Shown here: in pieces, positions 1 to 61,862 of the stretch
Layout: the number at the start of each line of letters is the position of its first letter
Position numbering within the stretch: the stretch's first letter is position 1
IMG/VR virus record: IMGVR_UViG_3300042937_000071
Location: 1 to 61,862 of that record
DNA: 61,862 nucleotides
Source of the DNA: a virus
Lineage: Duplodnaviria > Caudoviricetes
Strand: one strand, 5' to 3'
Notes under the pieces: generated by a model
Database searches by the model: none
What the model saw: the letters and a program-made list of their open reading frames with translations, nothing else
Told to the model about the DNA's origin: nothing
Position numbers and translations under genes: made by a program

Positions 1-1
1 C

Positions 2-322
2 CCCCTTGATGTATCGGATGGTGTTTTCTTTATTAAGGCCGATGGCTCTACTTCTGTAAGCCTAGTTGTCGAGAAGAACGGCACAGCAACTACGACCTCC
101 AGCGTGGCTACTATGGCTAACGATACTTTCGTTCGGCTTGGTTTCTTCTACGATGGTGCGTCTGCAATTGAGTATTCCGTAAATGGAGTAACCAAAGGAA
201 CTTCAGTGACCACCAATCTGGTTGATGACGAAGACTTGACTGTTTCGTTTGCAATCCAAAATGGTGAAGCCGTCGCTAAAACGATGACTGTTGATTACAT
301 CTTCGTTGCGAAGGAGCGTTAA
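2..322 (+). CDS. 3' fragment of putative virion protein (allele of 53591-54283)
   Basis: Near-identical to the C-terminal part of 53591-54283; truncated by the window start. Confidence 0.9.
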   Translation, partial: PLDVSDGVFFIKADGSTSVSLVVEKNGTATTTSSVATMANDTFVRLGFFYDGASAIEYSVNGVTKGTSVTTNLVDDEDLTVSFAIQNGEAVAKTMTVDYIFVAKER

Positions 323-324
323 TC

Positions 325-1494
325 ATGGGCCAATTCAAACCAATGGTCAAAATGATGACCACTGAACCGACCGTTGAGTTAAAACTCAAAAAGGGCGGTC
401 ATGTGAACATGAAAAAAGGCGGTAAAGCCGAGGCTGGTCACAAGAAGATGGCCGATGGTGGTGGTGCTATGGGCGCATTGGCAGGGACTCCAGCCTTAAT
501 TGGCCGTCCTGCCGTCAATGCTCCTGTTCGCGCCCCGGGCAAGCCCTCAATGGCCTCACGCCGCAAGGCAATGATGGCAAAGCCAGCAATGGCCTCCAAA
601 GCGCCAATCGGCAATCCTTCGATGCCTTCAACACCAATGAAAAACGGTGGCGAGTCTAAGGCAACGCACAAGGCTGAAATGTCGAAGATGAAGGGTCTTG
701 AAAAAGAACTGAAGTCTCACGAGTCTAAGCCTGCCAGCAAAGGCCATAAAGGTCTTGCAACTGGTGGTGTTGCACTTGGTCAAGGTGGCTACAAAAAGGG
801 CGGCAATGTCAAGAAGTACGCCAAAGGCGGCGTGGCTGGCAATGGAGTTATTCCTGAGTCTGCTTCTGCAAAAGGCGCTGGCCCTTATCGCAATACTGAG
901 ATGCACACTGCTGAGTACACTGGCAAGTCCAGTGGCAAAACAGGCGGCGTGAAGAACGGTAACGGCGGTGGCTACAAGACTGGCGGCGTTGCTCTAGGCA
1001 ATGGTGGCGGCTACAAAAAAGGTGGTGCCACAAAAAAAGCCTACGCGACGGGGGGTACTGTTGATTCAGGCAAACCCGTCGCGATGCCCCAAGGCTCTAA
1101 AAAGCCTCCAACACCAGTAAGCATCAATCGTCTGACAGGTACTTACAAAAGCGGTGGCAAGGTAACTCCTGCCCAAGGCCGCTTGCAAGCAAACTTCAAA
1201 GCGGAGAACGCTACGGCCATGAAAGAGGCCAAGGCTGATACCAACTTGAAGTACAGCAAGTACCAGAAGATGGCTGATGGTGGTAAGCCAGTGGATTTGT
1301 CCAAAGGTGCATACGATGCTTCTAAAAAGCACAGTATGGAACTAGAGGATGCTTTGAATCCATTGAGCATGGTGAAGGAACTTGCAGGCAAAGCGAAAGA
1401 CTACTTCATGCCCAAGGGTGAAAGTGTGACCAAGACGAAAGAGTCTGTAACGGTTGCACCAGTGCCCAAAAAGCGTGGCGGTGGCGCTTGTTGA
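325..1494 (+). CDS. Basic K/G/A/M-rich protein with repeated xxxGG motifs, ending in Cys
   Basis: 389 aa ORF with AAGGAG RBS; allele at 54286-55479; lies two genes downstream of the capsid gene in genome order. Confidence 0.85.
   Translation: MGQFKPMVKMMTTEPTVELKLKKGGHVNMKKGGKAEAGHKKMADGGGAMGALAGTPALIGRPAVNAPVRAPGKPSMASRRKAMMAKPAMASKAPIGNPSMPSTPMKNGGESKATHKAEMSKMKGLEKELKSHESKPASKGHKGLATGGVALGQGGYKKGGNVKKYAKGGVAGNGVIPESASAKGAGPYRNTEMHTAEYTGKSSGKTGGVKNGNGGGYKTGGVALGNGGGYKKGGATKKAYATGGTVDSGKPVAMPQGSKKPPTPVSINRLTGTYKSGGKVTPAQGRLQANFKAENATAMKEAKADTNLKYSKYQKMADGGKPVDLSKGAYDASKKHSMELEDALNPLSMVKELAGKAKDYFMPKGESVTKTKESVTVAPVPKKRGGGAC
1032..1083 (+). promoter_or_regulatory. Putative -1 ribosomal frameshift signal
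   Basis: In-frame A_AAA_AAA (1032-1038), 5-nt spacer, stem CGCGACGGG (1044-1052) / CCCGTCGCG (1075-1083); conserved at 54984-55035. Confidence 0.7.
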
Positions 1495-1500
1495 AAACGA

Positions 1501-1526
1501 GTGGGGGCTTCGGCCCCCGCTTTTAA
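1501..1526 (+). terminator. Intrinsic terminator (cUUCGg hairpin)
   Basis: GTGGGGGC-TTCG-GCCCCCGC followed by TTTT. Confidence 0.8.
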
Positions 1527-1541
1527 TTTAAGGAATAAGTC

Positions 1542-1946
1542 ATGGCCGATGCAGTCGCAAGTCAAACGCTCATAGATGGTGAGCGGATGGCAATCATGAA
1601 ATTCACCAACCTTTCTGACGGTACTGGTGAAAGCAAAGTTTTGAAGGTAGATGTTTCTGCTTTGACATCAAGTGCATCTGGTTTAGCCTGCACTGGCGTA
1701 ACTATTACAAAAATCCATGCCGCAACGCATGGCTTGGAAGTACAGATTTATTGGGATGCAACCGCAGATGTATTTTGCTGGTGTGTGCCACAAAATTCTC
1801 AATACACGATGGATTTCGATAAGTTCGGCGGTTTGACTAACAACGCAGGCGCTGGCGTAACTGGTGATGTATTGTTCAGCACTGCTGATGCTACTGCTGG
1901 TGACTTCTATACCATCGTCCTTGAGATGGTTAAATCTTACGGTTAA
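1542..1946 (+). CDS. Hypothetical beta-rich protein, probably structural
   Basis: 134 aa ORF with AAGGA RBS; replaced by an unrelated gene in copy B. Confidence 0.75.
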   Translation: MADAVASQTLIDGERMAIMKFTNLSDGTGESKVLKVDVSALTSSASGLACTGVTITKIHAATHGLEVQIYWDATADVFCWCVPQNSQYTMDFDKFGGLTNNAGAGVTGDVLFSTADATAGDFYTIVLEMVKSYG

Positions 1947-1948
1947 TT

Positions 1949-2473
1949 ATGCCAAGCAAATCACCTGCTCAACATCGTTTGATGGAGGCGGTAGCGCACA
2001 ACCCTGCGTTCGCCAAAAAGACAGGTATCCCTCAAAAAGTCGGCAAAGAGTTTGCCAAGGCTGATAAAGGGAAAGAATTTAAAGGAGGCGGTTTGTATGA
2101 AAACATTCATAAAAAACGCGAAAGAATCGCTGAAGGTTCTGGCGAAAAGATGCGCCGAGTGGGTAGCGAAGGTGCGCCAACGGCTAAAGCCTTCAAAGAA
2201 TCAGCAAAAACCGCCAAATTAAAAGATGGCGGGCCAAGTCTTGCCGTTGGTCGAGGTGAAAAACTTTCGACAAAAGAAGGCGCAGGGCTTACGCAAAAGG
2301 GCCGAGACAAATACAATAGAGAGACTGGGAGCAAGTTAAAGGCTCCACAGCCTCAAGGCGGCGCTCGAAAGGATTCTTTTTGTGCCCGTATGAGTGGCGT
2401 TGTAGAACATTCAAAAGGGGACGCTCCACGCGCCAAGGCATCGCTAAAGCGGTGGGATTGCCCCGGTTGGTAA
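1949..2473 (+). CDS. Basic modular protein; C-terminal RKxSFCARM...RWxC domain (DUF6321-like)
   Basis: Motif recalled from phage proteins; shorter allele at 56311-56694. Confidence 0.75.
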   Translation: MPSKSPAQHRLMEAVAHNPAFAKKTGIPQKVGKEFAKADKGKEFKGGGLYENIHKKRERIAEGSGEKMRRVGSEGAPTAKAFKESAKTAKLKDGGPSLAVGRGEKLSTKEGAGLTQKGRDKYNRETGSKLKAPQPQGGARKDSFCARMSGVVEHSKGDAPRAKASLKRWDCPGW

Positions 2474-2482
2474 GGAGTCAAA

Positions 2483-3544
2483 ATGGCGTATTCAGGAACC
2501 GTTGGTCAAACCGTCATCAATGTCCAAACATTGATTGATCACGGCGCTCGACGCTGTGGCAAGTTGGCCGAGGAGTTGACCTCTGAGCAGGTTCTGTCAG
2601 CACGCCAGTCTCTTTACTTCCTCTTGTCTGATCTAGGCAACCGAGGCATTCAATTTTGGACAATCACCAAGAAGGTTATTGGCCTAACCCCTGACAAGTA
2701 CATATACGACCTCCCAAAGGGTTCTATTGACCTCTGGAACACGCTATATCGCACGATGAGCCGTCCAAGCGGGTCATACACCACTTCTGCTGGCGGAACC
2801 GTTGCAAACGCGTATGACGGCGATGTAGACACCATTTGCACGCAGACATCAACCAACGGCAACATTTCGGTCAACTACGGCACATCAAACCCCATTTATA
2901 TTGGCTCAATTGGCTTGTTGCCTGCGTCCACTGGGACTTGGTCAATCATTTACGAATATTCAATTGACGGCACAACATGGAAGACTTTGGTTGACCTTGG
3001 CTCTGTTGCTGTTGTGGATAACGAGTGGATTTGGACTGACATCGTTGCAGGCCAGACCGTTCAATACTATCGTTGCCGTGTCTATAACGGCACCACGCTT
3101 TCTGTTCGCGAGTTGTACTTTGGGAACAATTCGCTTGAGGTGCAGATGTCTTCGCTCAACCGTGACGACTACACCAACCTGCCAAACAAAGATTTCACGG
3201 CCAATCAGCCGTATCAGTATTGGTTTAACCGCCAGATTCCAAACCCACAAATCTATATCTGGCCTGTGCCGTCTACTGCTTTTGTGCAGATGACTTGCTG
3301 GTACTCGCGCCAGATTGAGGATGTGGGCGCTTTGACTGACGAGTTGGAAATTCCACAGCGTTGGTATGAGGCTGTGCAGATGATGCTGGCTCACAAGATG
3401 AGCCTCGAACTGCCTCAAGTTGCGATGGATCGCATTGGCTATCTGGAGAAGATGGCCGAGAAACACCTCTACATTGCAGAGCAAGAAGAGCGTGATCGCT
3501 CACCAATTTATTGGGCACCGAACATTTCGGTGTACACAGCGTAA
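2483..3544 (+). CDS. Putative head-tail adaptor/tail tubular protein with inserted beta-sandwich domain
   Basis: 353 aa; helical N/C termini with IYIWPVP...LEIPQRWYEA pattern typical of podoviral adaptors; allele 56704-57777. Confidence 0.6.
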   Translation: MAYSGTVGQTVINVQTLIDHGARRCGKLAEELTSEQVLSARQSLYFLLSDLGNRGIQFWTITKKVIGLTPDKYIYDLPKGSIDLWNTLYRTMSRPSGSYTTSAGGTVANAYDGDVDTICTQTSTNGNISVNYGTSNPIYIGSIGLLPASTGTWSIIYEYSIDGTTWKTLVDLGSVAVVDNEWIWTDIVAGQTVQYYRCRVYNGTTLSVRELYFGNNSLEVQMSSLNRDDYTNLPNKDFTANQPYQYWFNRQIPNPQIYIWPVPSTAFVQMTCWYSRQIEDVGALTDELEIPQRWYEAVQMMLAHKMSLELPQVAMDRIGYLEKMAEKHLYIAEQEERDRSPIYWAPNISVYTA

Positions 3545-3918
3545 TGCCAATCTTTCTCGACACAACAGGACTGACTTCGATTGCCATCGGTGTATGCGAC
3601 CGATGCAAGATGAAACGCGCCTTTGTGCAACTGGGGCCAGACCCCAACTTCCCCGGGTTACGGGTGTGCGACCAAGGGTGCAGGGATCAATTTGACCCCT
3701 ATCGCCTTGCCGCCCGTAAGACCGAGCGTATCAACCTGCGGTTTCCTCGTCCTGATGTACCTATCGGTGCTGGCGACAATTACCTGATGACTGGCAGTCA
3801 ATCAATGGATGGCACAAGCCAGTTCCAGATTTCGACTGAGCAGAACACACAGACGCCAACATTGACAGGCAACAAAGATACGATTGCGCCGAACCCGCCC
3901 GACAATACGAGTACATAA
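3544..3918 (+). CDS. Small CxxC...CxxxC zinc-binding phage protein
   Basis: CDRC and VCDQGC motifs; TAATG coupling; allele 57777-58118. Confidence 0.75.
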   Translation: MPIFLDTTGLTSIAIGVCDRCKMKRAFVQLGPDPNFPGLRVCDQGCRDQFDPYRLAARKTERINLRFPRPDVPIGAGDNYLMTGSQSMDGTSQFQISTEQNTQTPTLTGNKDTIAPNPPDNTST

Positions 3919-6528
3919 ATGTCAGCACAAGTCGCCATTACCCAACTCCCAACCGCTGGTGCCATAACAGGCACTGAAGCGGTTCCTATCGTCCAAAATG
4001 GCGTGACCGTGCAGACTACGACGGGGGCTATTGCCGCTTCGCCGTCGCAGACTTACACATACCTGACCGTCAATCAAACCCCTCAGTTGCCCAATAGTCG
4101 TTATTTCGGGGCAACCAATGGCTTGTCGATTACTGACGGTGGTGCGCAAGGACTCTTCAATATAAGCACCACAGGCGCTTTATTGTCTTTGGTGAACTCT
4201 GGTACTGGGTTCCAAGTAAAAACCTCCTCTACGGCCATTACAGGCCGTTCTATTGCTGTTACTGGCGTTGGACTGGGAATTACCAACGGCGATGGCATTG
4301 CAGGCAACCCGACAATTGCTTTGGCAGGCCAAGTTTTGTCTTTGGCGAACCTTTCTGGCAATGGTTTGGTGACCGTCAACACGAGCGGGATCATCAATTC
4401 GACCAACATTCTGGGCACCGCAAACCAGATTTCGGTGGCAAATGGGGACGCTGTAAGCGGTGCGCCGACGGTTGCGCTGGCTGATAACGCGATATTGCCC
4501 GGTACCGCCTCGATGACCGTGCCTATTGGCACCACCCTGCAACAGCCTCTTGGCTCTAATGGTCAGTTCCGATTTAACAGCACCACCCAGACTTTTGACG
4601 GTTATTCGGCTGGTACATGGCGACAGTTCTCTCTGTCTGGCGGTGTAACGACCTTCAGTGGTGGTTCTACTGGCCTGACACCAAACACCCCAACTGGTGG
4701 TGCTGTGACCCTCGCTGGCACGCTGATTGTGCCCAATGGCGGTACAGGGGCCACAAGTTTGCTTGGCTATGTCTATGGCAACGGCACGGCCTCCATGACG
4801 GCCTCGACCACCATACCAACGACTGACTTGAGCGGTGTGATCACCAATGCTCAATTGCAAAACAGTTCTGTGACTTACAACGGCGTGACCGTTGCTCTTG
4901 GCGCGTCGGGCACGATTACAGCGACCGCATCAAATCCTTTGACAATTGGCACAGGTTTGACTGGCTCGTCCTACAATGGCTCCGCGCCCGTCACCATCAC
5001 GATTGACTCTACTGTTGCCACCTTGACTGGTGCGCAAACGCTCACAAACAAAACGATGAGCGGTGCAAGCAACACCTTTACAAACATTCCAAACGGCGCG
5101 TTGGACAACAGCACCATCTCTGGTGTGGCGCTGGGTTCCAACTTGTTTGCGTTGACCATCGGCACTGGCCTGACTGGCTCTTCGTACAACGGCTCTGGCG
5201 CTGTGACTGTTGCGATTGACTCGACCGTCGTGACATTGACAGGCACTCAGACACTGACTGGCAAGTCCATGTCTGGCTCGACCAACACATTTACAAACCT
5301 GCCAAACAGTGCGCTGACCAACAACTCGATCACGCTGGGCACAACCAATGTGGCGCTTGGCGGTACAAGCCTGACCCTTGGTGGATTGACTTCGGTTACG
5401 GTCACCCAAGACCCAGTAAGCAATTTCCAGTTGGCGACTAAGCAGTATGTTGATACCTTGGTTGCCTCTGGCATTCATTTCCATACGCCTGTTCGCGTCG
5501 AGTCTCCAACTCCGCTGAATGCGACCTACAACCAACCCGGGGGTGCTGGAGATGGCGTAGGCGCAACATTGACCAATGCAGGCACCCAAGCCGCTTTGGT
5601 GATCGACGGCGTAACCGTTGCGGTCAATGACCGCGTGCTGGTTTACACACAAACAAACGCCACTCAAAACGGCGTCTATGTGGTGACTGACACAGGCTCT
5701 GTTTCAACAAACTGGATTCTGACTCGCTCATCTGATACCAATACCTACGGGATTGTTGGCCCAACCACACTGAGCGAAGGCTCGACCTTCTTTGTTCAGC
5801 AAGGCACAACTGGTGCTGGTGAGACCTACACCTGCAATACGCAGGGTGTGATCGTTTTTGGTACGACCAACATCAATTTCGTGCAGATCAGTTCTACGCA
5901 GATTTATTCCGCAGGCACTGGTTTGACATTGTCTGGCACGCAGTTCAGCATCAGCAACACTGCTGTGACTGCTGGCGCATACGGTTCTGCATCGTCTGTT
6001 GGCACATTCACTGTGAATGCTCAAGGTCAGTTGACCTTGGCATCTAGCACCGCGATTGCAATCAACGGCAACCAGATTACCTCTGGCACTGTGGGTTCTG
6101 CGTACATCAGCGGCTCTTACACTGGCATCACAGGTGTTGGCACGCTGACCGTAGGCGCATGGAACGCTTCAACAATTGACGCAGGCTTTGGTGGAACAGG
6201 AATATCTACCTACACTGGTGGTGACTTGTTGTACGCCTCTGGAACCACAACGCTTGCCAAGTTGGGTATCGGCGCGGCCAATTATGTGCTGACCTCGTCT
6301 GGCACTGCTCCTCAGTATGTTGCTCAGTCAACCCTGTCTGTTGGCTCTGCGACAAACGCAACAAACGCAACGAATACCGCAATTACGGCTGACTCGACAA
6401 ATGCAACAAATTACCTAACTTTTGTCAATGCTACTACTGGAAATCTGGGGCAATTGGTAAACTCATCAATAACTTGCAATCCATCGACTGGCAAATTAAC
6501 AGGCGGGATCGCTGGAGGAACTTTCTAA
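3919..6528 (+). CDS. Tail fibre protein
   Basis: 869 aa G/T/S/N-rich, QTLTNKT repeats, ATKQYVD motif, ends GGTF. Confidence 0.8.
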   Translation: MSAQVAITQLPTAGAITGTEAVPIVQNGVTVQTTTGAIAASPSQTYTYLTVNQTPQLPNSRYFGATNGLSITDGGAQGLFNISTTGALLSLVNSGTGFQVKTSSTAITGRSIAVTGVGLGITNGDGIAGNPTIALAGQVLSLANLSGNGLVTVNTSGIINSTNILGTANQISVANGDAVSGAPTVALADNAILPGTASMTVPIGTTLQQPLGSNGQFRFNSTTQTFDGYSAGTWRQFSLSGGVTTFSGGSTGLTPNTPTGGAVTLAGTLIVPNGGTGATSLLGYVYGNGTASMTASTTIPTTDLSGVITNAQLQNSSVTYNGVTVALGASGTITATASNPLTIGTGLTGSSYNGSAPVTITIDSTVATLTGAQTLTNKTMSGASNTFTNIPNGALDNSTISGVALGSNLFALTIGTGLTGSSYNGSGAVTVAIDSTVVTLTGTQTLTGKSMSGSTNTFTNLPNSALTNNSITLGTTNVALGGTSLTLGGLTSVTVTQDPVSNFQLATKQYVDTLVASGIHFHTPVRVESPTPLNATYNQPGGAGDGVGATLTNAGTQAALVIDGVTVAVNDRVLVYTQTNATQNGVYVVTDTGSVSTNWILTRSSDTNTYGIVGPTTLSEGSTFFVQQGTTGAGETYTCNTQGVIVFGTTNINFVQISSTQIYSAGTGLTLSGTQFSISNTAVTAGAYGSASSVGTFTVNAQGQLTLASSTAIAINGNQITSGTVGSAYISGSYTGITGVGTLTVGAWNASTIDAGFGGTGISTYTGGDLLYASGTTTLAKLGIGAANYVLTSSGTAPQYVAQSTLSVGSATNATNATNTAITADSTNATNYLTFVNATTGNLGQLVNSSITCNPSTGKLTGGIAGGTF

Positions 6529-7629
6529 ATGTCACAAGCAGGATATACACCAATTCAACTGTACTACAGCACCACTGCGCTTGCTGTACCGACTGCTGGC
6601 AATCTTGCTGATGGCGAGTTGGCGCTCAACATCACTGACGGCAAGTTGTACTACAAAGACGGCGGCACGGTAAAACTGCTGGCCTCCAACGGTGGCTCAA
6701 GCCCTGTAACCTCGTTCCAGACTTCTTTAGGTGGCTTGACCCCATCCACGGCCACAACTGGCGTGGTGACCCTTGCAGGCACCTTGAACACCACTTCTGG
6801 TGGTACGGGCCTGACTTCATACACCGCTGGTGATCTGTCCTACTATGCGACGGGCACCACTCTGACCAAACTAGGCATTGGCTCTGCTGGTCAGATTTTG
6901 ACTTCGACTGGTGCCGCTCCGCAGTGGTCTACGCTGTCTGGCGTGGCTGTGACGACTTTCTCTGCTGGCACGACTGGATTGACTCCTGCGTCAGCAACTT
7001 CTGGCGCAATTACTTTGGCTGGCACTTTGGTGGTGTCAAACGGTGGCACTGGGTTGACCAGTTTGACCGCTGGCTACATTCCTTTTGGTGCTGGTACTTC
7101 TGCCTTTGGTAACTCTGCAAACCTGTTCTGGGACTCTGCAAACAACCGATTTGGTGTTGGCACTTCGTCCCCTGCGGTGACGGTGTCAATTTCCGCAACT
7201 GATGCGATTTTGTTGCCTGTCGGAACGACTGGTCAGCGCCCAACTGGCGCGACTGGTTATCTGCGATTCAACACAACGACTGCCGCTTTTGAGGGCTACA
7301 ACGGCACCTCTTGGACTTCTGTAGGTGGCGCGAATGTCACCAATGACACCACGACAGCGACGGCTCTGTATCCGCTCTTTGCAAATGTGACCACGGGCGC
7401 GGCGACCAATGTCTACACCTCAAACGCAAAACTGCTCTACACCCCATCAAATGGCGAATTGCAGTCTGCTGAGTTGTACGCAAACAATGGCGTGCTTACC
7501 CATGCGAATCAAGTTTCTACAAGTTACACCGTCCCAACGAATGCAAATGTGATTACGGTTGGCCCTTGGACAGTTGCGTCTGGCGCTACTTTCACTCTGC
7601 CTTCTGGTAGCCGTCAAGTTCTTCTGTAA
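6529..7629 (+). CDS. Tail fibre protein with N-terminal GELALNITDGKLYY anchor domain
   Basis: Fibre-type repeats; allele 60770-61810. Confidence 0.75.
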   Translation: MSQAGYTPIQLYYSTTALAVPTAGNLADGELALNITDGKLYYKDGGTVKLLASNGGSSPVTSFQTSLGGLTPSTATTGVVTLAGTLNTTSGGTGLTSYTAGDLSYYATGTTLTKLGIGSAGQILTSTGAAPQWSTLSGVAVTTFSAGTTGLTPASATSGAITLAGTLVVSNGGTGLTSLTAGYIPFGAGTSAFGNSANLFWDSANNRFGVGTSSPAVTVSISATDAILLPVGTTGQRPTGATGYLRFNTTTAAFEGYNGTSWTSVGGANVTNDTTTATALYPLFANVTTGAATNVYTSNAKLLYTPSNGELQSAELYANNGVLTHANQVSTSYTVPTNANVITVGPWTVASGATFTLPSGSRQVLL

Positions 7630-7638
7630 GGATAAAAA

Positions 7639-8736
7639 ATGTCAACGATACGCGCAGGAACAACTACTACAACCGCCCTACAGACTACGGGCGACACAAC
7701 TGGCAATATTGTTTTGCAACCAGATTCTGGGATTGCATCTATCAGCGCAACTGGCGCTTTAACAATTCCCGTTGGAACAACCGCTCAACGACCAGCAAGT
7801 CCTGCCTCTGGTATGACTCGCATGAACACTACGACTGGCTTTCCAGAGTGGTATGACACAGTCACATCTAATTGGGTGCAATTTAACAGCGCCCCAACTT
7901 ATACGATTGAGTATTTGAATGTTGCTGGTGGTGCAGGAGGCGGAAATAATGCAGGTGGTCATGCAGGTGGTGGCGGTGGTGCTGGCGGTTATTTGGCGAC
8001 ATCTGTATCTGGCGTATCACCATCACAGACATATACGATTGTTGTTGGAGCGGGTGGGGCAGGTGGTGGAACAAGCGGAACTGGACAAGGTTTTAATGGA
8101 ACAAACTCATCTATTTCAGGCCCCGCTATATCATCAACCTCAACAGGAGGTGGAGGTGGTGGTGGTGTAAATAACTTTGTACCCGGCACTGCTGGCGGCT
8201 CTGGTGGCGGCGGTTCTGGTCGTGGAAATACGGCTGGAGGTGCTGGAACTGTAGGTCAAGGTTTTGCTGGTGGATTTTCAGACCCAGACAACGCACCCGG
8301 TGAAAACGCTGGTGGTGGAGGTGGTGGTGCATCCGCAGTAGGTAGCAATGGTCAATGGAATAACGGTGGTATTGCTCGTGGTGGCGATGGCGGTAATGGT
8401 TTGAATTGGCAATCACTAGGTACTTACTATGCAGGCGGTGGTGGTGGCGGAGTTTCAAGCAACCAACCGGGCGCAACTTATCAAAACTCTTCTGGCGGTT
8501 TAGGTGGGGGAGGTACAGGTGGTACAGGCAACATGAATGGAATGACCGCAGGAACCGCCAATACTGGTGGTGGAGGTGGTGGCACTGGAGAGTCGGGAAA
8601 CGGAGCCGCAGGCGGTTCTGGTATTGTGATTCTTCGCTATTTATCAGCAAGCCAGCGAGGAAATGGGGGAACTGTGACAAATTCTGGTGGATATTACTAT
8701 CACACCTTTACGACTAGCGGGACTTACACATCGTGA
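7639..8736 (+). CDS. Glycine-rich fibre/receptor-binding protein 1
   Basis: GTTAQRP knob plus poly-Gly domain ending TFTTSGTYTS. Confidence 0.75.
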   Translation: MSTIRAGTTTTTALQTTGDTTGNIVLQPDSGIASISATGALTIPVGTTAQRPASPASGMTRMNTTTGFPEWYDTVTSNWVQFNSAPTYTIEYLNVAGGAGGGNNAGGHAGGGGGAGGYLATSVSGVSPSQTYTIVVGAGGAGGGTSGTGQGFNGTNSSISGPAISSTSTGGGGGGGVNNFVPGTAGGSGGGGSGRGNTAGGAGTVGQGFAGGFSDPDNAPGENAGGGGGGASAVGSNGQWNNGGIARGGDGGNGLNWQSLGTYYAGGGGGGVSSNQPGATYQNSSGGLGGGGTGGTGNMNGMTAGTANTGGGGGGTGESGNGAAGGSGIVILRYLSASQRGNGGTVTNSGGYYYHTFTTSGTYTS

Positions 8737-9348: not shown

Positions 9349-10446
9349 ATGACATCAATCATCAAAGCAGACGACGGAGTTGTATCCGGCGTCACTGGTG
9401 TAACGACTACATCTGACAACAGCGGAACGCTAGAGTTTCAAGCAACAAGCGGCATTGTTGAAATGGACAATGTTACTGGTGCTTTGGCTATGCCCAAAGG
9501 CACTACTGCACAACGACCAGCATCACCAATTACTGGTCAACAAAGATGGAACACAACAACTTCCTCAATGGAGGTTTATGACGGAACTAATTGGGTTCTA
9601 GTTACTTTAACTTCATACAATTACACGGTAAATTTCCTTGTAATTGCTGGAGGCGGAGGCGGTGGCGCTGTTCGTGGAGGTGGCGGTGGTGCTGGTGGAT
9701 ACAGAACTTCTGCTGGAACATCTGGTGGGGGCGGCTCTGCTGAATCTTCAATTACTGTGGGGGCTGGCACAAGTTATGCAGTCACTGTTGGCGCTGGCGG
9801 TGCTGGCTCAACCTCAGAGAACAATAAAGGAACTAGCGGCTCAAACTCTATATTTAGCACCATAACTTCAACAGGTGGTGGTGGTGGCGGTTCGGCAAAT
9901 AATAGAGAAGGCGTTGCTGGTGGCTCTGGTGGCGGGGTCTCTCAAGTTAATACACTACCAGTCGCCGCAGGTACTGCTGGTCAAGGATACGCTGGAGGTC
10001 TTGGTTTTGACGGTGGTGGTTCAAACGAAGGTGGTGGTGGTGGCGGTGGTGCTGGCAGTGTTGGTGGTAATAGGGCTAACGCTGGAGCGGCGGGCGCTGG
10101 CGGTAGCGGAGTTTCATCAAGCATCACTGGCTCGGCTGTAACTCGCGGAGGCGGTGGCGGTGGTGGTGACAATGGTTACTCACGAGGGCCGGGTGGTTCT
10201 GGCGGTGGTGGTGATGGTGCATCAACTAATGGAGGAACCACCGCTGGTGCCGGAACAGCCAATACTGGCGGCGGAGGCGGCGGAGGCGGTCAAGTATCAA
10301 CTGCACAAGTAAACGGCGCACAAGGTGGTTCTGGCGTTGTGATTATTTCTTATGCTGGCGCACAACGAGGTACTGGCGGAACTGTCACAACATCAGGTGG
10401 TAATACCATTCATACTTTTACTTCATCTGGCACTTACATTGCCTAA
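9349..10446 (+). CDS. Glycine-rich fibre/receptor-binding protein 2
   Basis: Paralogue of 7639-8736. Confidence 0.75.
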   Translation: MTSIIKADDGVVSGVTGVTTTSDNSGTLEFQATSGIVEMDNVTGALAMPKGTTAQRPASPITGQQRWNTTTSSMEVYDGTNWVLVTLTSYNYTVNFLVIAGGGGGGAVRGGGGGAGGYRTSAGTSGGGGSAESSITVGAGTSYAVTVGAGGAGSTSENNKGTSGSNSIFSTITSTGGGGGGSANNREGVAGGSGGGVSQVNTLPVAAGTAGQGYAGGLGFDGGGSNEGGGGGGGAGSVGGNRANAGAAGAGGSGVSSSITGSAVTRGGGGGGGDNGYSRGPGGSGGGGDGASTNGGTTAGAGTANTGGGGGGGGQVSTAQVNGAQGGSGVVIISYAGAQRGTGGTVTTSGGNTIHTFTSSGTYIA

Positions 10447-10844: not shown

Positions 10845-11780
10845 ATGGCGCAAATAATTTCAGGAACCGATGGAACGGTGTTTTCGTCATGGACGACTGC
10901 TGGTCGCCCTGTTTCTCCTTCTGTGGGCCAGCAAGGCTATAACACTACCCTTTCGTCAATGGAGTATTGGAATGGCACTCTTTGGGCGCAATTTGGTCAA
11001 TCATCCGCACCATCAGTAACTTATTTGGTTGTTGCGGGTGGAGGTGGCGGTGGTAGAAAAGGTGGAGGTGGTGGAGCAGGTGGATACCAAACATCTACTT
11101 TAGCCGTTGCATCAGGTTCTGCTTTAACTGTTACTGTTGGGGCAGGTGGCGCAGGCTCCAGTTCAACTGGCGCAAAAGGTGTAAATGGTTCTGATTCTGT
11201 TTTTTCATCAGTAACTTCAACTGGAGGCGGGGGCGGAGGTTCAGACCAAACAAGTTTCCAAAATGGAGCAAATGGTGGTTCTGGAGGTGGTGCGGCTGGT
11301 GGTGGATATTCTCCATCTGGTAGTGGCGGCTCTGGAACTGGAGGTCAAGGAAATGCTGGCGCAGGAAATATTGGAAGTTCTCCATTTAACGGAGGTGGCG
11401 GAGGTGGCGCTGGCGCGGCTGGTTCTACAAACGGCAACGGTGGTAATGGTTCAGCATCTTCTATATCAGGCTCTTCTGTAACTTACGCAGGTGGTGGAGG
11501 TGGCGGTGGAGACACTTCTCCTAGTGGCACTGGTGGAACTGGTGGTGGTGGAGCGGGTGGAGCGGGTGGCGGTGCATCTGTAGCGGGAACGGCTAATACA
11601 GGCGGAGGCGGAGGTGGAGGTGGTAATGCTTCAAATGGCTCTGCTGGAGGCTCTGGAATTGTTATTATTTCCTACGCTTCATCTTACAAACTTGCTACAT
11701 ACACTGGGACTTGCACTCAAACAACCTTTGGTGGAAATTACATCTTCACTTTTACAGGCTCTGGAACAATCACTTTCTAA
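10845..11780 (+). CDS. Glycine-rich fibre/receptor-binding protein 3
   Basis: Paralogue of 7639-8736. Confidence 0.75.
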   Translation: MAQIISGTDGTVFSSWTTAGRPVSPSVGQQGYNTTLSSMEYWNGTLWAQFGQSSAPSVTYLVVAGGGGGGRKGGGGGAGGYQTSTLAVASGSALTVTVGAGGAGSSSTGAKGVNGSDSVFSSVTSTGGGGGGSDQTSFQNGANGGSGGGAAGGGYSPSGSGGSGTGGQGNAGAGNIGSSPFNGGGGGGAGAAGSTNGNGGNGSASSISGSSVTYAGGGGGGGDTSPSGTGGTGGGGAGGAGGGASVAGTANTGGGGGGGGNASNGSAGGSGIVIISYASSYKLATYTGTCTQTTFGGNYIFTFTGSGTITF

Positions 11781-52629: not shown

Positions 52630-53544
52630 ATGGCCGCTCCGATGCGAAGTACCGACTTTCGGTCGATTGTTGAACCCATTCTGAATGAGTGCTTTGATGG
52701 TGTATACGATCAGCGTACTGATGAATGGTCTCGGGTTTTTACCGAGCAAGAAGGCATTCCTCGTAATTACCACGAGGAACCTGTTTTGTATGGCTTTGGT
52801 GCCGCACCTCAACTTCCTGATGGCACTCCTGTGTCCTATCAGCAAGGTGGCGTGTTGTTCCTCAAGCGCTATGTCTACAATGTGTATGGCCTCGCCTTCG
52901 CATTGACCAAAGTGCTTGTGGAAGACGGTGACCATATCCGTATTGGTCAGGTGTATGCCCGTCACTTGGCTCAGTCTTTGATTGAGACCAAAGAAACTCT
53001 CAGCGCCAATGTGCTGAACCGTGCGTTCAACTCCGCTTATCCCGGTGGTGACGGCGTTCAGTTAAACAGCGCAAGCCATCCTATCGTTAACGGTACTTTC
53101 AGCAACTTGCTGTCGACCGCCGCGAACCTCAGCCAAACCTCTCTTGAGCAGATGCTGATCCAGATTCGTCAGGCTGTGGACAACAACGGCAAGAAGATTC
53201 GTTTGGTTCCACGCCAATTGGTCGTGGCTCCCGGCAATGTCTTCCAAGCCGAAGTGTTGCTCAAGTCCGTTCTGCGTGCTGGCAATGCCAACAACGACAT
53301 CAACCCAATCAAGTCTATCGGCTTGCTTGACGAAGGTGCCGCTGTTCTGTCGCGTTTGACTTCAGCCACCGCATGGTGGGTGCAGACTGATGCTCCAGAA
53401 GGCATGAAGTTGCTCATGCGCCGCAAACTTGAGAAGACCATGGAAGGCGACTTCGAAACTGACTCTATGCGCTACAAAGCGACTGAGCGTTACGATGTTG
53501 GCTTTACTGATCCCCGTGCCATGTATGGCACGCCGGGTGTTTAA
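52630..53544 (+). CDS. Major capsid protein
   Basis: 304 aa; GGDGVQLNSASHP, PRQLVVAP, YKATERYDVGFTDPR. Confidence 0.88.
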   Translation: MAAPMRSTDFRSIVEPILNECFDGVYDQRTDEWSRVFTEQEGIPRNYHEEPVLYGFGAAPQLPDGTPVSYQQGGVLFLKRYVYNVYGLAFALTKVLVEDGDHIRIGQVYARHLAQSLIETKETLSANVLNRAFNSAYPGGDGVQLNSASHPIVNGTFSNLLSTAANLSQTSLEQMLIQIRQAVDNNGKKIRLVPRQLVVAPGNVFQAEVLLKSVLRAGNANNDINPIKSIGLLDEGAAVLSRLTSATAWWVQTDAPEGMKLLMRRKLEKTMEGDFETDSMRYKATERYDVGFTDPRAMYGTPGV

Positions 53545-53590: not shown

Positions 53591-54283
53591 ATGGCAAATT
53601 TATTAGTAACTCGTTTCCCAAATGGTGTTACCAATGTGGGTGAGGATTCGCCGTTTGCTGATCTGGCAATGCCTGCTCCAACCTTGTTTCATACTTACTA
53701 TGAAGATTTCGACTACTATGTGGCCGCAAATTGGACGGTAACTGAGACTCAGGCTGGTGCTACTCAGGCTTTGACTGATGGCGACGGTGGTCTGCTTCTG
53801 CTTACCAACACTGCCGCAGATGATGATCTTGTTGCTTTGCAAAAAGTAGGCGAGTCATATCGCTTTGCTTCTGGCAAAAAACTGTTCTTTGAAGCACGCT
53901 TCAAGGTCAGTGACGCGACTCAGTCTGATGTGGTGATGGGTCTTCAGATCACAGACGCTACCCCCCTTGATGTAACGGATGGTGTTTTCTTCATTAAGGC
54001 CGATGGCTCTACTTCGGTAAGCCTATTGGTCGAGAAGAACGGCACAGCAACTACGACCTCCAGCGTGGCTACTATGGCTAACGATACTTTCGTTCGGCTT
54101 GGTTTCTTCTACGATGGTGCGTCTGCAATTGAGTATTCCGTAAATGGCGTGACCAAAGGAACCTCAGTGACCACCAACCTGCCTGATGACGAAGACATGA
54201 CTGTTTCGTTTGCGATCCAGAATGGTGAAGCCGTCGCCAAGACAATGACTGTTGATTACATCTTCGTTGCGAAGGAGCGTTAA
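53591..54283 (+). CDS. Putative virion protein, beta-sandwich
   Basis: TRFPNGVTN N-terminus; follows capsid gene; AGGAG RBS. Confidence 0.75.
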   Translation: MANLLVTRFPNGVTNVGEDSPFADLAMPAPTLFHTYYEDFDYYVAANWTVTETQAGATQALTDGDGGLLLLTNTAADDDLVALQKVGESYRFASGKKLFFEARFKVSDATQSDVVMGLQITDATPLDVTDGVFFIKADGSTSVSLLVEKNGTATTTSSVATMANDTFVRLGFFYDGASAIEYSVNGVTKGTSVTTNLPDDEDMTVSFAIQNGEAVAKTMTVDYIFVAKER

Positions 54284-54285
54284 TC

Positions 54286-55479
54286 ATGGGTCAATTTAAA
54301 CCAATGGTCAAGATGATGACCACCGAACCTTCAGTTGAGTTGAAACTGAAGAAAGGTGGCTCCGTCAAATCGATGACCAAAATGAAGTCCGGTGGCACTG
54401 GCTCCGGTCACAAGAAGATGGCTGACGGTGGTGGCGCGATGAGCGCAATCATGGGCACGCCTGCTCTGGTTGGCCGTCCTGCTGTCAACGCCCCTGTACG
54501 CACTCCCGGTAAGCCCTCTATGTCCGCTCGTCGCAAGGCGATGGCACCGAAGGCTAAGATGCCCGCAACCCCAATGATGAAGAAGGGTGGCGAGACTGAG
54601 AAGGAACACAAGGCTGAGATGACGAAGATGAAGGGTCTTGAAAAAGAACTGAAGTCTCACGAGTCCAAGCCTGCCAGCAAAGGCCATAAAGGTCTGAAGT
54701 CAGGCGGTATGGCCTGCGCTACTGGCGGTGTTACCAACGGTCAAGGTGGCTACAAAAAGGGTGGCAATGTCAAGAAGTACGCCAAAGGCGGACTGACTGG
54801 CAACGGCATCATCAATACCGAAAATCAAGGTGGCAAATATCGCGACACTTTGATGCACACCGCTGAATACACTACCAAAACTAGTGGAAAAACTGGCGGC
54901 GTGAAAAAAGGTAACGGTGGTGGCTATGCCACTGGCGGCGTCGCGCTAGGTAATGCTGGTGGCTACAAAAAAGGTGGCTCACCAAAAAAAGCCTACGCGG
55001 CGGGGGGTACTGTTGATTCAGGTCGTCCCGTCGCGATGCCCCAAGGCCGTAAGAAGCCTTCCACTCCTGTAAGCATCAACCAACTATCTGGCACCTTCAA
55101 GTCCGGCGGCAAGGTAACCCCTGCTCAAGGACGCTTGCAGAAGATGTTCGCTAAGGAAAACGCCCCGGCCATGAAAGCGGCCAAGGCACAATCCAACGAG
55201 GTCTACAGCAAGTATCAGAAAATGGCAAAAGGCGGTGAAGTTGAGGCAATGGAGCAACAAGCATCTAAGATGGCACAAGGAGAAAGTGGAATTCTTAGAA
55301 AGTTAAGGGAGCAATATCCTAACGATCAAGTCCATGATCTTTTGTATCGATTTCCAAAAGGATACAAGTTGCCAAAAGGTGTTGATGAGGCTCTAAAAGG
55401 GTTGGGATCAGTCACAGAAACTGAAAAGTCTGTAACAGTCTCACCAGCAGGAAAAAAACGCGGCGGACGCGCTTGTTGA
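54286..55479 (+). CDS. Basic xxxGG-repeat protein, allele B
   Basis: Homologous to 325-1494. Confidence 0.85.
   Translation: MGQFKPMVKMMTTEPSVELKLKKGGSVKSMTKMKSGGTGSGHKKMADGGGAMSAIMGTPALVGRPAVNAPVRTPGKPSMSARRKAMAPKAKMPATPMMKKGGETEKEHKAEMTKMKGLEKELKSHESKPASKGHKGLKSGGMACATGGVTNGQGGYKKGGNVKKYAKGGLTGNGIINTENQGGKYRDTLMHTAEYTTKTSGKTGGVKKGNGGGYATGGVALGNAGGYKKGGSPKKAYAAGGTVDSGRPVAMPQGRKKPSTPVSINQLSGTFKSGGKVTPAQGRLQKMFAKENAPAMKAAKAQSNEVYSKYQKMAKGGEVEAMEQQASKMAQGESGILRKLREQYPNDQVHDLLYRFPKGYKLPKGVDEALKGLGSVTETEKSVTVSPAGKKRGGRAC
54984..55035 (+). promoter_or_regulatory. Putative -1 frameshift signal, allele B
   Basis: A_AAA_AAA plus stem CGCGGCGGG / CCCGTCGCG (one G-U pair). Confidence 0.7.
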
Positions 55480-55485
55480 AAATGA

Positions 55486-55510
55486 GTGGGGGCTTCGGCC
55501 CCCGCTTCTA
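55486..55510 (+). terminator. Intrinsic terminator
   Basis: Same hairpin as 1501. Confidence 0.75.
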
Positions 55511-55529
55511 ATTTATTTTGGAGAGCCAC

Positions 55530-56309
55530 ATGGCAACCGTAATTTCATCTATTTCGCGTCAAGGCGCATATGAACCGTTCGAGTTGCAGGTCTCTCGCGG
55601 TCAAATTCAAGGCCACAGCACGGTCATCGTGTTTGGTTACAACCCAGATGTGGACACATCCGAGGAGTCCGTATGGCCTGCTGGCGGCACAGTCCCTCAC
55701 CCAACATCTGCATCAGTTTTGAAAATTAGTTCATCCAGCGCCGACGACGCGTCGGCTGGCACTGGTGCGCGAACCGTTTTTATTGAAGGCGTAAACGGCA
55801 ACTTTGCTGTGGTGAGCGAGACCGTGATATTGAACGGTCAAACAGAAGTCAACACAACAAACTCGTACCTGTATGTGAACAGTTTCTATGTCGCTACAGT
55901 TGGCTCTGGCGGTGCAAACGCAGGCAACATCAATGCTGGCACTGGCACGGTGACATCGGGTGTCCCAGCAGTTTTGTATGACATCATTGCAATCGGTTAC
56001 AACCAGCGCACCACTGGTCATTACTGTGTTCCAGCAGGCTTCACAGGTTATATGACAACGGGTTCAATTTCTGCTGGTCAAGCCTCTGGCTCGACTTCTG
56101 TCACTACCTTTCTAAAGCAACACGGCACAGACAACATCTTGCGTGTTGGTGCGGTTGCCGCAGTAAACAATAACGCCGCTGTGTTTGATTTTGTACAGCC
56201 TTACAAAATTCCAGAAAAGAACTGTGTCGGAGCATCTGCAATTGGAGCCGCCGCGAATAACGCAGTGAGTTCGTACTTTAACATCATCTTAATTAAAAAC
56301 GGCCCTTAA
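55530..56309 (+). CDS. Hypothetical beta-rich structural protein
   Basis: GGAG RBS; FGYNPDVD and GTGARTV motifs; unrelated to 1542-1946. Confidence 0.75.
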   Translation: MATVISSISRQGAYEPFELQVSRGQIQGHSTVIVFGYNPDVDTSEESVWPAGGTVPHPTSASVLKISSSSADDASAGTGARTVFIEGVNGNFAVVSETVILNGQTEVNTTNSYLYVNSFYVATVGSGGANAGNINAGTGTVTSGVPAVLYDIIAIGYNQRTTGHYCVPAGFTGYMTTGSISAGQASGSTSVTTFLKQHGTDNILRVGAVAAVNNNAAVFDFVQPYKIPEKNCVGASAIGAAANNAVSSYFNIILIKNGP

Positions 56310-56310
56310 T

Positions 56311-56694
56311 ATGCCAAGCAAATCACCTTCCCAGCATCGTTTGATGGAGGCGGTCGCACATAACCCTGCGTTTGCAAAGAAGGTTGGCATCCCTCAAAAG
56401 GTTGGCAAAGAGTTTTCTCGTGCCGATGAGGGTAAAAAGTTTAAGAGTGGCGGGTCATCGCTCTCTGTTGGTCGCGGCGAGAAGTTATCTACCGAACGCG
56501 GTGCTGGTTTAACAGCCAAAGGTCGGGCAAAATATAACCGTGAAACTGGTAGCAATTTGAAGGCCCCGCAACCGCAGGGCGGAGCGAGAAAAGACTCGTT
56601 TTGTGCGCGGATGTCGGGCGTTGTTGAAAACTCAAAAGGGGACGCTCCAAGAGCAAAGGCTTCATTGAAGCGTTGGAACTGCCCCGGATGGTAG
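56311..56694 (+). CDS. Basic DUF6321-like protein, allele B
   Basis: Homologous to 1949-2473 minus one internal module. Confidence 0.75.
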   Translation: MPSKSPSQHRLMEAVAHNPAFAKKVGIPQKVGKEFSRADEGKKFKSGGSSLSVGRGEKLSTERGAGLTAKGRAKYNRETGSNLKAPQPQGGARKDSFCARMSGVVENSKGDAPRAKASLKRWNCPGW

Positions 56695-56703
56695 AGGACT
56701 GTT

Positions 56704-57777
56704 ATGGCATATTCGGGAACCGTCGGCGAAACCGTCATCAATGTCCAAACATTGATTGACCACGGTGCGCGTCGTTGCGGAAAACTCGCTGAAGAATTAA
56801 CCTCAGAACAGCAACTGTCTGCGCGGCAGTCGTTGTTTTTTCTGCTGTCCCACCTCGGCAACAAAGGCATCAACTACTGGGCCATTGACAAGAAAGTTTT
56901 TGGCCTGAAGGCTGACCAGTACATCTACACAATGCCTCTAGGTTGCATTGATGTGTTGAATGTGCTGTATCGCACAATGAACCGCCCTACGGGCGACTAC
57001 TCGACTTCCGCTGGCGGCGTGATCGCCAATGTGTACGACAACGATGTTGACACTTGGTGTCAGCAAACTTCTGCCAACGGCAACATTTCGATTTTCTACG
57101 GCACCAACAATCCAATCTACGCTGGCTCTATTGGCATCCTGCCCTATGTTTCTGGCGGGGGCACGGCTACATGGTCAATCACTTTTGAGTACAGCGTTGA
57201 CGGCATTACATGGAACACGCTCGACAATTTAGGCGAGATCGTGGTGACCGACAATCAGTGGATATGGACTGACATTGATCCGGGCCAAAGCGTCATGTAC
57301 TACCGCGTTCGCGCCTACAACGGCACGACACTGGCTCTGCGTGAGTTCTATGTTGGAAACAACAGCCGCGAGATTCAGATGTCCCGCTTGAACCGCGATG
57401 ACTACACCAATTTACCGAACAAGAACTTTACGGCCAATCAGCCGTACCAGTTCTGGTTTGATCGCACCATTCCACAACCAACAGTCTATCTCTGGCCTAC
57501 GCCCTCCGACCCGTTCATTCAGATGACCGTGTGGTATCAGCGTCAGATCATGGATGTGGGCGCGTTGACTGATGAACTTGAGATTCCTCAGCGCTGGTAC
57601 GAAGCAATTCAATTTATGCTTGCACATCGCATGAGTTTGGAGTTGCCTCAAGTTGCCATGGATCGTGTTGGCTATCTAGAAAAGATGGCTGATAAGTACC
57701 TCTTTGAGGCCGAGCAAGAAGAGCGGGATAAGTCACCAATCTACTGGGCGCCGAACATTTCGGTGTACACACGCTAA
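56704..57777 (+). CDS. Adaptor/tail tubular protein, allele B
   Basis: Homologous to 2483-3544. Confidence 0.6.
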   Translation: MAYSGTVGETVINVQTLIDHGARRCGKLAEELTSEQQLSARQSLFFLLSHLGNKGINYWAIDKKVFGLKADQYIYTMPLGCIDVLNVLYRTMNRPTGDYSTSAGGVIANVYDNDVDTWCQQTSANGNISIFYGTNNPIYAGSIGILPYVSGGGTATWSITFEYSVDGITWNTLDNLGEIVVTDNQWIWTDIDPGQSVMYYRVRAYNGTTLALREFYVGNNSREIQMSRLNRDDYTNLPNKNFTANQPYQFWFDRTIPQPTVYLWPTPSDPFIQMTVWYQRQIMDVGALTDELEIPQRWYEAIQFMLAHRMSLELPQVAMDRVGYLEKMADKYLFEAEQEERDKSPIYWAPNISVYTR

Positions 57778-58118
57778 TGCCAATATTTCTTGACACGACT
57801 GGGCTATCGTCTGTTGCCATCGCTGTATGCGATAGGTGCAAGATGAAGCGCACCTTTGTGTCGATGATGGCCGACCCGAACTTCCCGGGTCTTCGTGTTT
57901 GCGATCAGGGTTGCAAGGATGAGTTTGACCCTTACCGCTTGCCCGCACGCAAAACCGAGCGCATCAATCTGCGTTTTCCACGCCCCGATGAGAGTGTTGC
58001 CGTTGATCCGGATGCACTGCTCACGAACGGCCCGAACAACTTTGAGATTACGACCGAAGGGAATACGGACACTCCGGAAAACAACGGCAATCTCGACAAC
58101 ATCGCACCGAGTCCCTAA
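57777..58118 (+). CDS. Zinc-binding protein, allele B
   Basis: Homologous to 3544-3918. Confidence 0.75.
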   Translation: MPIFLDTTGLSSVAIAVCDRCKMKRTFVSMMADPNFPGLRVCDQGCKDEFDPYRLPARKTERINLRFPRPDESVAVDPDALLTNGPNNFEITTEGNTDTPENNGNLDNIAPSP

Positions 58119-61810: not shown

Positions 61811-61819
61811 GGATAAAAA

Positions 61820-61862
61820 ATGTCAACGATACGCGCAGGAACAACTACTACAACCGCCCTAC
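61820..61862 (+). CDS. 5' fragment of Gly-rich protein 1
   Basis: Identical to 7639-7681. Confidence 0.85.
   Translation, partial: MSTIRAGTTTTTAL

Follow-up and report, generated by a model that had tools for sequence, protein, structure and literature searches.

Introduction

Among the closest described systems is the -1 frameshift of dnaX, which uses the heptamer A_AAA_AAG, a Shine-Dalgarno (SD) sequence 10 nucleotides (nt) upstream and a 3' stem-loop; the shift takes place two-thirds along the gene and translation terminates one codon later (Atkins et al. 2016, PMC5009743). Among insertion sequences (IS), a cluster with the heptamer A_AAA_AAA is named as a proven case of -1 frameshifting stimulated by a stem-loop (PMC4066793), and an SD sequence is present in an estimated 56% of IS elements (PMC5009743). 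The phage cases in PMC5009743 mostly extend proteins, as in lambda G/GT, gene 10 of T3 and T7, phage A2 and Listeria phages. Both articles are cited throughout from the parts of their text that were available. Here we describe a candidate -1 frameshift cassette in a gene for a basic, Gly/Lys-rich protein in the Caudoviricetes record IMGVR_UViG_3300042937_000071, a complete IMG/VR virus record of 61,862 nt, which we call the window. An earlier annotation made from the letters of this DNA (the first-pass annotation) had pointed to the cassette. It had also remarked that most descriptions of phage frameshifts concern tail-chaperone or capsid genes, which agrees with the available text of Atkins et al. 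2016 (PMC5009743).

The reading we favour is a dnaX-like programmed -1 ribosomal frameshift, and we give it a probability of about 0.78. It would produce a predicted isoform of 246 amino acids (aa; 24.7 kDa) beside the full-length protein of 389 aa (39.7 kDa). The homologous genes show strong purifying selection on the heptamer, on the stem pairing and on the early -1 stop, and a chance origin of the cassette is very unlikely. The occurrence of shifting, its efficiency and the roles of the two isoforms are what we infer. The locus shares with the dnaX class a zero-frame heptamer, a structure 5 nt downstream (about 5-9 nt in the class) and an early -1 stop. An SD sequence about 10 nt upstream, which is optional in the class, is absent from the window's alleles.

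Results

The cassette in alleles A and B

The gene is present twice in the window, as gene A and gene B, and each copy carries the cassette. The features are:

325..1494, + strand: gene A, 389 aa, basic, family unassigned
54286..55479, + strand: gene B, diverged second copy of gene A, 397 aa
1019-1025, + strand: SD-like AAGGTGG, part of a KKGG motif with ordinary Gly codons
1032-1038, + strand: slippery heptamer A_AAA_AAA of allele A, in frame (ACA AAA AAA at 1030-1038, codons 236-238)
1039-1043, + strand: spacer GCCTA, 5 nt
1044-1052, + strand: 5' arm of the 9-base-pair (bp) stem, CGCGACGGG, with the rare codons GCG ACG GGG
1053-1074, + strand: loop of 22 nt, with the -1 Cys codon TGT at 1059-1061 and the -1 stop TGA at 1062-1064
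1075-1083, + strand: 3' arm of the stem, CCCGTCGCG
1038-1064, + strand: -1 tail SLRDGGYC followed by TGA, 8 codons after Lys-Lys
54984-54990, + strand: heptamer of allele B (CCA AAA AAA at 54982-54990)
54996-55035, + strand: stem-loop of allele B (arms 54996-55004 and 55027-55035, one G-U pair)

The shift site lies about 61% along gene A. In allele B the -1 frame reads KKSLRGGGYC and then stops at TGA (55014-55016). The full-length proteins end in KKRGGGAC (allele A) and KKRGGRAC (allele B). The first-pass annotation had described the heptamer, the 5-nt spacer, the 9-bp stem, the -1 peptides and these C-termini, and we found all of them in both alleles where it had placed them. It had further claimed that allele B keeps the stem through an A-U to G-U change while the loop codons change. 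This was confirmed at 54996-55035, where the stem differs from that of allele A in this single pair and the loop codons are GGT CGT CCC instead of GGC AAA CCC. When folded, the 54-nt segment gave -23.3 kcal/mol for allele A (z -2.45, 2/200 shuffles as good) and -27.6 kcal/mol for allele B (z -3.19, 0/200); these energies alone are suggestive only.

In the mechanism that we propose, ribosomes on the 389-aa frame would reach ACA AAA AAA, where the two Lys-tRNAs would re-pair one base back on A_AAA_AAA. The GC-rich 9-bp hairpin 5 nt downstream would stall the ribosome and make the slip likelier. Shifted ribosomes would translate eight further codons (SLRDGGYC) and terminate at TGA. The 246-aa isoform would retain the basic, Gly/Lys-rich, disordered N-terminal part and lose the C-terminal 151 residues with the predicted helices, and one gene would give two proteins in a set ratio.

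Conservation of the heptamer

Homologous loci were collected by three scans of viral contigs and one scan of genome contigs, using peptide patterns that all lie outside the cassette. The first set, the window's clade, contained 162 loci and 115 distinct gene sequences. The deeper set contained 87 loci (80 viral, 6 from metagenome-assembled genomes (MAGs) and 1 from GenBank) and 79 distinct genes, of which 77 cover the site and 2 are without the region.

An in-frame A_AAA_AAR was present at the homologous Lys-Lys in 115/115 genes of the window's clade (84 AAAAAAA, 31 AAAAAAG) and in 77/77 genes of the deeper set (48 AAAAAAA, 29 AAAAAAG). The heptamer with six A followed by G (A6G) therefore occurs in 60/192 genes, and the conservation reaches down to about 32% aa identity. 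The codon before Lys-Lys is TCA, GCA, ACA, CCA or TTA, i.e. the residue is Ser, Ala, Thr, Pro or Leu and the third base is always A; outside the cassette NCA makes up 19.9% of NCN codons. On a FastTree phylogeny of 186 genes of at least 300 residues, calculated with the cassette masked, this preceding codon changed at least 44 times and its third-position A was never lost. The last base of the heptamer toggled between A and G at least 14 times, and the motif permits both. The first Lys of the pair is always AAA, and outside the cassette Lys is encoded by AAA in 44.5% and by AAG in 55.5% of cases. Ordinary Lys-Lys coding was ruled out as the source of the heptamer, since only 19 of the 978 other Lys-Lys pairs in the same genes form one.

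More than one in-frame heptamer per gene was seen in 19/115 genes of the window's clade and in about 23/79 deeper genes. In the uncultured Caudoviricetes genome MW202545.1 (7070-7076) and at many deeper-clade loci, a second in-frame A_AAA_AAG stands at a downstream KKFA[ED]GG repeat, with the -1 tails KKV or KKVC; this may be a further shift site that was duplicated together with the repeat. Allele B also has a second in-frame A_AAA_AAA (GGA AAA AAA CGC) at 55452-55458, 8 codons before the stop. This one looks like chance, because allele A has CCC AAA AAG at that place.

Early closure of the -1 frame and the terminal Cys

The -1 frame closed 2, 6, 8 or 9 codons past Lys-Lys in 161/161 distinct cassettes. 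The stops are TGA, TAA or TAG and are made via several different zero-frame contexts, whereas the +1 frame is open for 6 to >60 codons. In the 88 standard-register genes, variation at the loop's synonymous sites is free in the codons for the second Gly, for Asp/Asn, for the third Gly and for Lys/Arg. In the same genes the loop Val codon is GTT in 88/88 (background 32%), and the base before it is T in 86/88, even when the residue there is Thr, Val or Leu. On the tree, the 104 standard-register genes showed 0 changes at the third base of the Val codon, which makes the -1 stop, and 3 at the base of the -1 Cys codon, while neighbouring synonymous sites changed 10, 20 and 24 times.

The first-pass annotation had suggested that both isoforms share a functional terminal Cys motif. 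Within the window's clade this holds: the -1 tail ends in Cys in 111/115 genes (3 of the other 4 have an inner Cys), and the full-length protein ends in Cys in 113/115 and has exactly one Cys in 101/115. The spacing GG-x-C that it had described for both isoforms is found in both alleles of the window and does not extend to the KKVC clade (17/115 genes), whose very different tail is still Cys-terminal and stops at TGA, TAA or TAG. Across the wider family the motif did not stand, since in the deeper set the -1 tail has a terminal Cys in 31/77, an inner Cys in 19/77 and none in 27/77. There, the tail Cys is also unlinked to the terminal Cys of the full-length protein (24:7 vs 19:7). An inner Cys may be due to chance, as it arises from the mere choice between TAC and TAT or between TTC and TTT.

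The shared terminal Cys is thus clade-specific and does not define the family, because it is common in the window's clade but loose in the deeper set. In the window's clade it is probably a real, selected feature.

Stem covariation and suppressed synonymous variation

Synonymous variation was followed in 47 representatives with <90% nt identity, drawn from 74 full-length genes among 82 sequences (8 partial ones were dropped). The ratio of observed to expected variation was 0.11-0.35 at codons 238-250 and 0.68 gene-wide, which makes this the deepest trough in the gene. Stem pairing was examined in an alignment of 82 cassettes, 50 of them distinct. In the 9-bp stem 97.3% of 450 cells pair, compared with 30-62% when the partner is slid by 1-3 columns. 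Changes on both sides of the stem were observed in 6 cells (0/500 shuffles reach 6) and in 2 pairs (26/500 shuffles reach 2). The pair that joins the third position of an Ala codon to that of a Val codon, both of them synonymous sites, occurs as GCG/GTC, GCC/GTG, GCT/GTA and GCA/GTT, i.e. in all four Watson-Crick forms, and one G-U intermediate was also seen; the two sites are 33 nt apart in DNA. Both signs that the first-pass annotation had proposed to look for in an alignment of homologues, namely suppressed synonymous variation and stem covariation, were therefore found.

When stems were sought without an alignment, 104/161 distinct cassettes had one of at least 7 bp with a spacer of 4-6 nt. 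The spacer was 5 nt in 71 of these, 6 nt in 31 and 4 nt in 2. The Ala codon of the spacer is GCC in 81/81 cases with Ala (23.5% elsewhere), and the codons in the stem arm are rare elsewhere (GCG 12.5%, ACG 13.2%, GGG 2.8%). Strong stems accompany 85/110 of the seven-A (A7) heptamers and 19/51 of the A6G heptamers, so that A6G is commoner among stem-poor cassettes. This distribution is consistent with a more shift-prone heptamer needing less support from a stem, although descent is a confounder.

The rare Gly codon GGG at 1053-1055 and at homologous sites is fixed as ACG GGG GG or ACG GGC GG, even where no clear 3' arm is seen. A pseudoknot between the G-run of the loop and the CCCC after the stem was considered and found unsupported, as the third base of the Pro codon is free (CCC 48, CCT 17, CCG 14 and CCA 8 of 88). 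A search of Rfam gave no family, and its only match was at chance level (E 6.6; 11.5 bits vs 36.2 needed).

A second synonymous trough lies at 682-745 (codons ~120-141; ~54620-54690 in gene B), with an observed/expected ratio of 0.25-0.46. This block encodes MSKMKGLEKELKSHESKPASKGHKGL and its nt sequence is nearly invariant in most of the 47 representatives. In a few relatives the encoded peptide is similar and many synonymous sites have changed; others have an alternative allele, DKAMIKKAFKQHDMQEHKGGKGT. The block could reflect mosaic exchange or another RNA element.

The upstream SD-like element

Upstream of the heptamer we found two layouts. Layout 1, shared by the window's alleles and 62/115 genes, encodes Gly-Gly-x-x-Lys-Lys with ordinary GGY codons; its G-rich core ends 5-6 nt before the heptamer, and only 5 of the 62 form GGAGG. 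Layout 2 (52/115 genes) encodes Gly-Gly-Lys-x-Ser-Lys-Lys. Its first Gly is GGA or GGG in 52/52 (background 9.7%), and the resulting GGAGG (21) or GGGGG (31) stands 9 nt before the heptamer, a distance similar to the 10 nt given for dnaX. Because of this codon bias and the 9-nt spacing, neither of which is seen in the window, an SD-like stimulator is credible in the sister lineages and unsupported in the window's alleles. Of the internal SD put forward by the first-pass annotation, the AAGGTGG itself is present at 1019-1025; the role of a stimulator found no support there, since it consists of the Gly codons GGT GGT / GGT GGC of the recurring KKGG motif.

Points against a programmed frameshift

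Several observations weigh against a programmed frameshift at this site. Runs of seven A are not enriched in the window (12 vs 16.2 +/- 5.3 in shuffles). Since they are no commoner than in shuffles and the hairpins are only moderately better, evidence from one sequence alone is weak and the case rests on conservation among homologues. Such runs may also slip in transcription or mutate by indels (PMC4066793). The SD-like motif of the window shows ordinary codon use, and its core ends 6 nt from the heptamer. No stem of at least 7 bp was found in 57/161 cassettes, which have only 4-6 bp at odd distances, and many stem-poor cassettes fold no better than shuffles. Therefore, the stem is not universal in the family. 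The stem-poor cassettes belong to the deep VVDDGKAVKMPRHF-type clade and to part of the KKVC clade, and the heptamer and the early stop are kept there. Since the gene is mosaic and has a second block of low variation, recombination may make the conservation look stronger, and the number of changes on the tree larger, than they are. Finally, no tRNA genes were found in the window, which we also count on this side.

Taken with these points, the first-pass claim of a conserved -1 cassette that gives a long and a short isoform has strong comparative support from the heptamer (115/115 and 77/77), the covariation and the near -1 stop. The expectation that the whole cassette would recur in further homologues was borne out throughout for the heptamer and the -1 stop (161/161) and in 104/161 cassettes for the stem.

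Other explanations for the conserved block

The block could be kept for the hairpin, with a function in mRNA stability, processing or pausing, and for the conserved peptide KKAYATGGTVDSGKPVAMPQ, so that the heptamer and the -1 stop would be by-products. Indeed, few stretches of the protein are as conserved as this peptide. Covariation shows the hairpin to be real, and it could have other uses; in addition, GGG is fixed even without a visible 3' arm. We consider this explanation improbable, as it leaves too many sites without a reason: the third-position A of a variable preceding codon across at least 44 changes, the first Lys that is always AAA when AAG is used in 55.5% of cases elsewhere, and the loop's only frozen synonymous sites, which are the makers of the -1 Cys codon and stop. 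It also does not explain why, in 161/161 cassettes, the -1 frame is closed after at most 9 codons through a variety of codons, unlike the +1 frame, or why the heptamer persists in stem-less clades.

Transcriptional slippage, in which the polymerase adds one A within the A-run, would make the same short protein without any slip of the ribosome. This identical outcome is compatible with the conserved -1 stop and Cys; allele A and 84/115 relatives carry seven consecutive A, AAAAAAA is linked to transcriptional slippage in PMC4066793, and slippage is the route to the short product of Thermus dnaX (PMC5009743). Yet 31/115 and 29/77 genes have only six A followed by G. The X_XXY_YYZ frame is always kept and the preceding third base is fixed, neither of which polymerase slippage needs. 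The covarying hairpin 5 nt on the 3' side and the SD-like motif 9 nt on the 5' side in 52/115 genes are ribosomal stimulators. Contigs from four RNA libraries span the site in relatives gap-free (e.g. 1018-1467 and 1018-1304) and show no indel in the A-run; such contigs lose rare variants and do not prove transcription, so that they are neutral on slippage. Overall, slippage by the polymerase seems to us quite improbable.

A recombination junction, at which the near-identical stretch would reflect recent module exchange among related phages and not selection, is highly improbable: the gene is mosaic in its N-terminal repeat numbers and C-terminal parts, has a second near-invariant block with alternative alleles (codons 120-135), and RNA-library contigs of relatives often end just before 1031, but the compensatory changes at two synonymous sites in four Watson-Crick forms require selection on pairing, and the heptamer and the early -1 stop, with its various codon solutions, persist amid diverged flanking nucleotides.

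The protein and its family

The protein of gene A has an isoelectric point (pI) of 10.1, contains 15.7% Lys and 16.5% Gly and consists of loosely repeated units of the type KK-[YFM]-A-x-GG / GG[YF]K. The sole Cys stands at the very C-terminus. Modelling with AlphaFold2 from 47 sequences gave mostly low-confidence coil (mean predicted local distance difference test score, pLDDT, 44.9; predicted template modelling score, pTM, 0.17), with helices mainly at residues 282-361, i.e. downstream of the shift site. The model suggests that the protein is mostly disordered.

Pfam gave no family for the 8 members tested. With PHROGs, neither allele had a match at E <= 0.001 and one of 47 members matched once, weakly (E 0.0022), and a profile search of PDB sequences returned chance-level matches only (best E 0.17). 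The neighbours in the ESM Atlas were unnamed viral clusters only, the top one probably being the protein's own. The family itself is large: of 8000 database proteins scored, 4978 reached E <= 0.001, all of them metagenomic or uncultured. DNA runs that contain the gene are labelled as lake-water metagenomes. In the full-text literature we found no description of the gene family or the site, with the supplementary tables of candidate clusters in PMC4066793 and PMC10885494 lying outside the coverage.

By capsid, the nearest named records are MW202545.1 (89.5% identical) and the Caulobacter phages RW, RLK, KcrB and GB2A (77%). The homologue in MW202545.1, located by synteny, has 449 aa and 32% identity (E 9e-33) and is annotated as a single coding sequence (CDS) for a hypothetical protein. 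A tblastn search with the low-complexity filter on (query 325-1491 against 50,697 phage records) gave no match, a false negative for at least MW202545.1. Negative searches with this protein are unreliable, because MW202545.1 is in the searched collection and encodes a full-length homologue that tblastn missed. Within the stretch that we read of Caulobacter phage RLK (OQ135106.1), no homologous Gly/Lys-rich gene was evident. In the stretch read, the cultured Caulobacter phages have a homologue of the 230-aa protein that precedes the cassette gene in the window, and a Cys-rich open reading frame (ORF) of 516 aa after the capsid gene. Distant homologues stand on 6 MAG contigs, 5 labelled Burkholderiaceae, Burkholderiales or betaproteobacterial and 1 Hyphomicrobium; these labels come from binning and are a weak hint to the host.

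Genome record and gene neighbourhood

The ends of the record, 1-7681 and 53962-61862, are mutually homologous and diverged, with several blocks at 69-86% nt identity. Beyond the shared genes, end A carries small genes of 134 and 174 aa and end B of 263 and 127 aa. The record has the appearance of an over-length assembly in which two related strains are joined, not of one genome, which is why the gene is present twice. The proteins of genes B and A are 65% identical by BLASTP and 72% in a separate comparison.

The gene belongs to the head module, in which the large terminase (41642..) is followed by a 1366-aa protein, the portal (47170..), three small genes and the major capsid protein (52630..53544; Pfam Phage_capsid_4). 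Then come the 230-aa protein and the gene with the frameshift cassette. Downstream of the latter are a protein whose match to the SU10 adaptor stays below the threshold (25.5 bits, cutoff 27) and, after it, fibre-like proteins.

Two genes 3' of allele A, at 1949..2473, a basic protein of 174 aa is encoded (pI 10.1, 15.5% Lys, DUF6321 domain), and a 127-aa basic protein takes its place next to allele B. Three ORFs at 7639..8736, 9349..10446 and 10845..11780 have 30-33% Gly and nearly no Lys; they may encode collagen-like repeat proteins among the tail-fibre genes.

Discussion

We would guess that the gene product is a basic protein associated with the virion and made in two lengths. The lone Cys at the end of both forms may, in the window's clade, be a point of covalent (disulfide) attachment. 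A more far-reaching scenario is conceivable, though we regard it as doubtful: the transframe peptide itself would be selected, both Cys-terminal isoforms would be anchored covalently in the virion through a disulfide or another thiol bond, the shift would set the ratio of long to short form, and the KKV/KKVC repeat site would give a third isoform.

By comparative criteria the cassette is a very well supported recoding case, and the family of uncultured freshwater phages that carries it is widespread. Its short isoform escapes standard annotation, as in MW202545.1, where one hypothetical CDS is listed. The family is also a natural mutagenesis series, with A7 and A6G heptamers, stems that are strong, weak or absent, an SD-like element in one layout but not in the other and several -1 tails, and it could be used to work out rules of bacterial -1 frameshifting beyond E. 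coli. It would also be worth isolating the protein itself, which is basic, disordered and encoded in the head module and has a lone Cys at its end.

Among known systems, E. coli dnaX is similar in its in-frame A_AAA_AAR about two-thirds along the gene, the 3' stem-loop a few nt further on, the early -1 stop and the truncated product. Some relatives of the phage gene also share the SD-like element about 9-10 nt upstream. This resemblance is by mechanism, not by homology. The phage protein is unrelated, has no Pfam family and its site has no match to an Rfam frameshift element; it belongs to a head-module gene and not to a replication gene. Most phage copies have A_AAA_AAA instead of A_AAA_AAG, and the window's alleles are without a well-placed SD. 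The phage -1 tail is 2-9 codons long compared with one codon in dnaX; within the window's clade, selection seems to favour its terminal Cys.

Thermus thermophilus dnaX likewise gives a truncated product from an A-run with nearby stops in other frames (PMC5009743), but this happens at the level of the polymerase and is independent of the frame, whereas slipping by the ribosome is indicated here by the placement in the frame, the A6G variants and the hairpin. The IS3 family (IS911 and IS150 type) shares A_AAA_AAR with a 3' stem-loop and often a 5' SD (PMC4066793, PMC5009743). In the IS elements, however, the shift joins two long frames so that a longer transposase is made, while the phage -1 frame closes within a few codons, and the Pfam and PHROG searches gave no transposase homology for the gene A protein.

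Among phages, lambda G/GT also has a conserved, low-level -1 shift in a morphogenesis gene that sets the ratio of two products (PMC5009743). The slippery sequences differ, and G/GT extends into the next gene and sits between the tail tube and tape-measure genes, whereas in the cassette gene the shift would truncate the product, and the gene sits between capsid-side genes and a head-tail adaptor-like gene. Genes 10A/10B of T7 and T3 and the capsid gene of Lactobacillus phage A2 are head-module genes in which a -1 shift gives two products (PMC5009743). Those shifts extend the major capsid protein at its C-terminus, often with an Ig-like domain; here the capsid gene is separate and the shift would shorten a disordered basic protein. 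Among the phage cases named in the available text of PMC5009743, a truncating dnaX-like shift such as the one proposed here is unusual.

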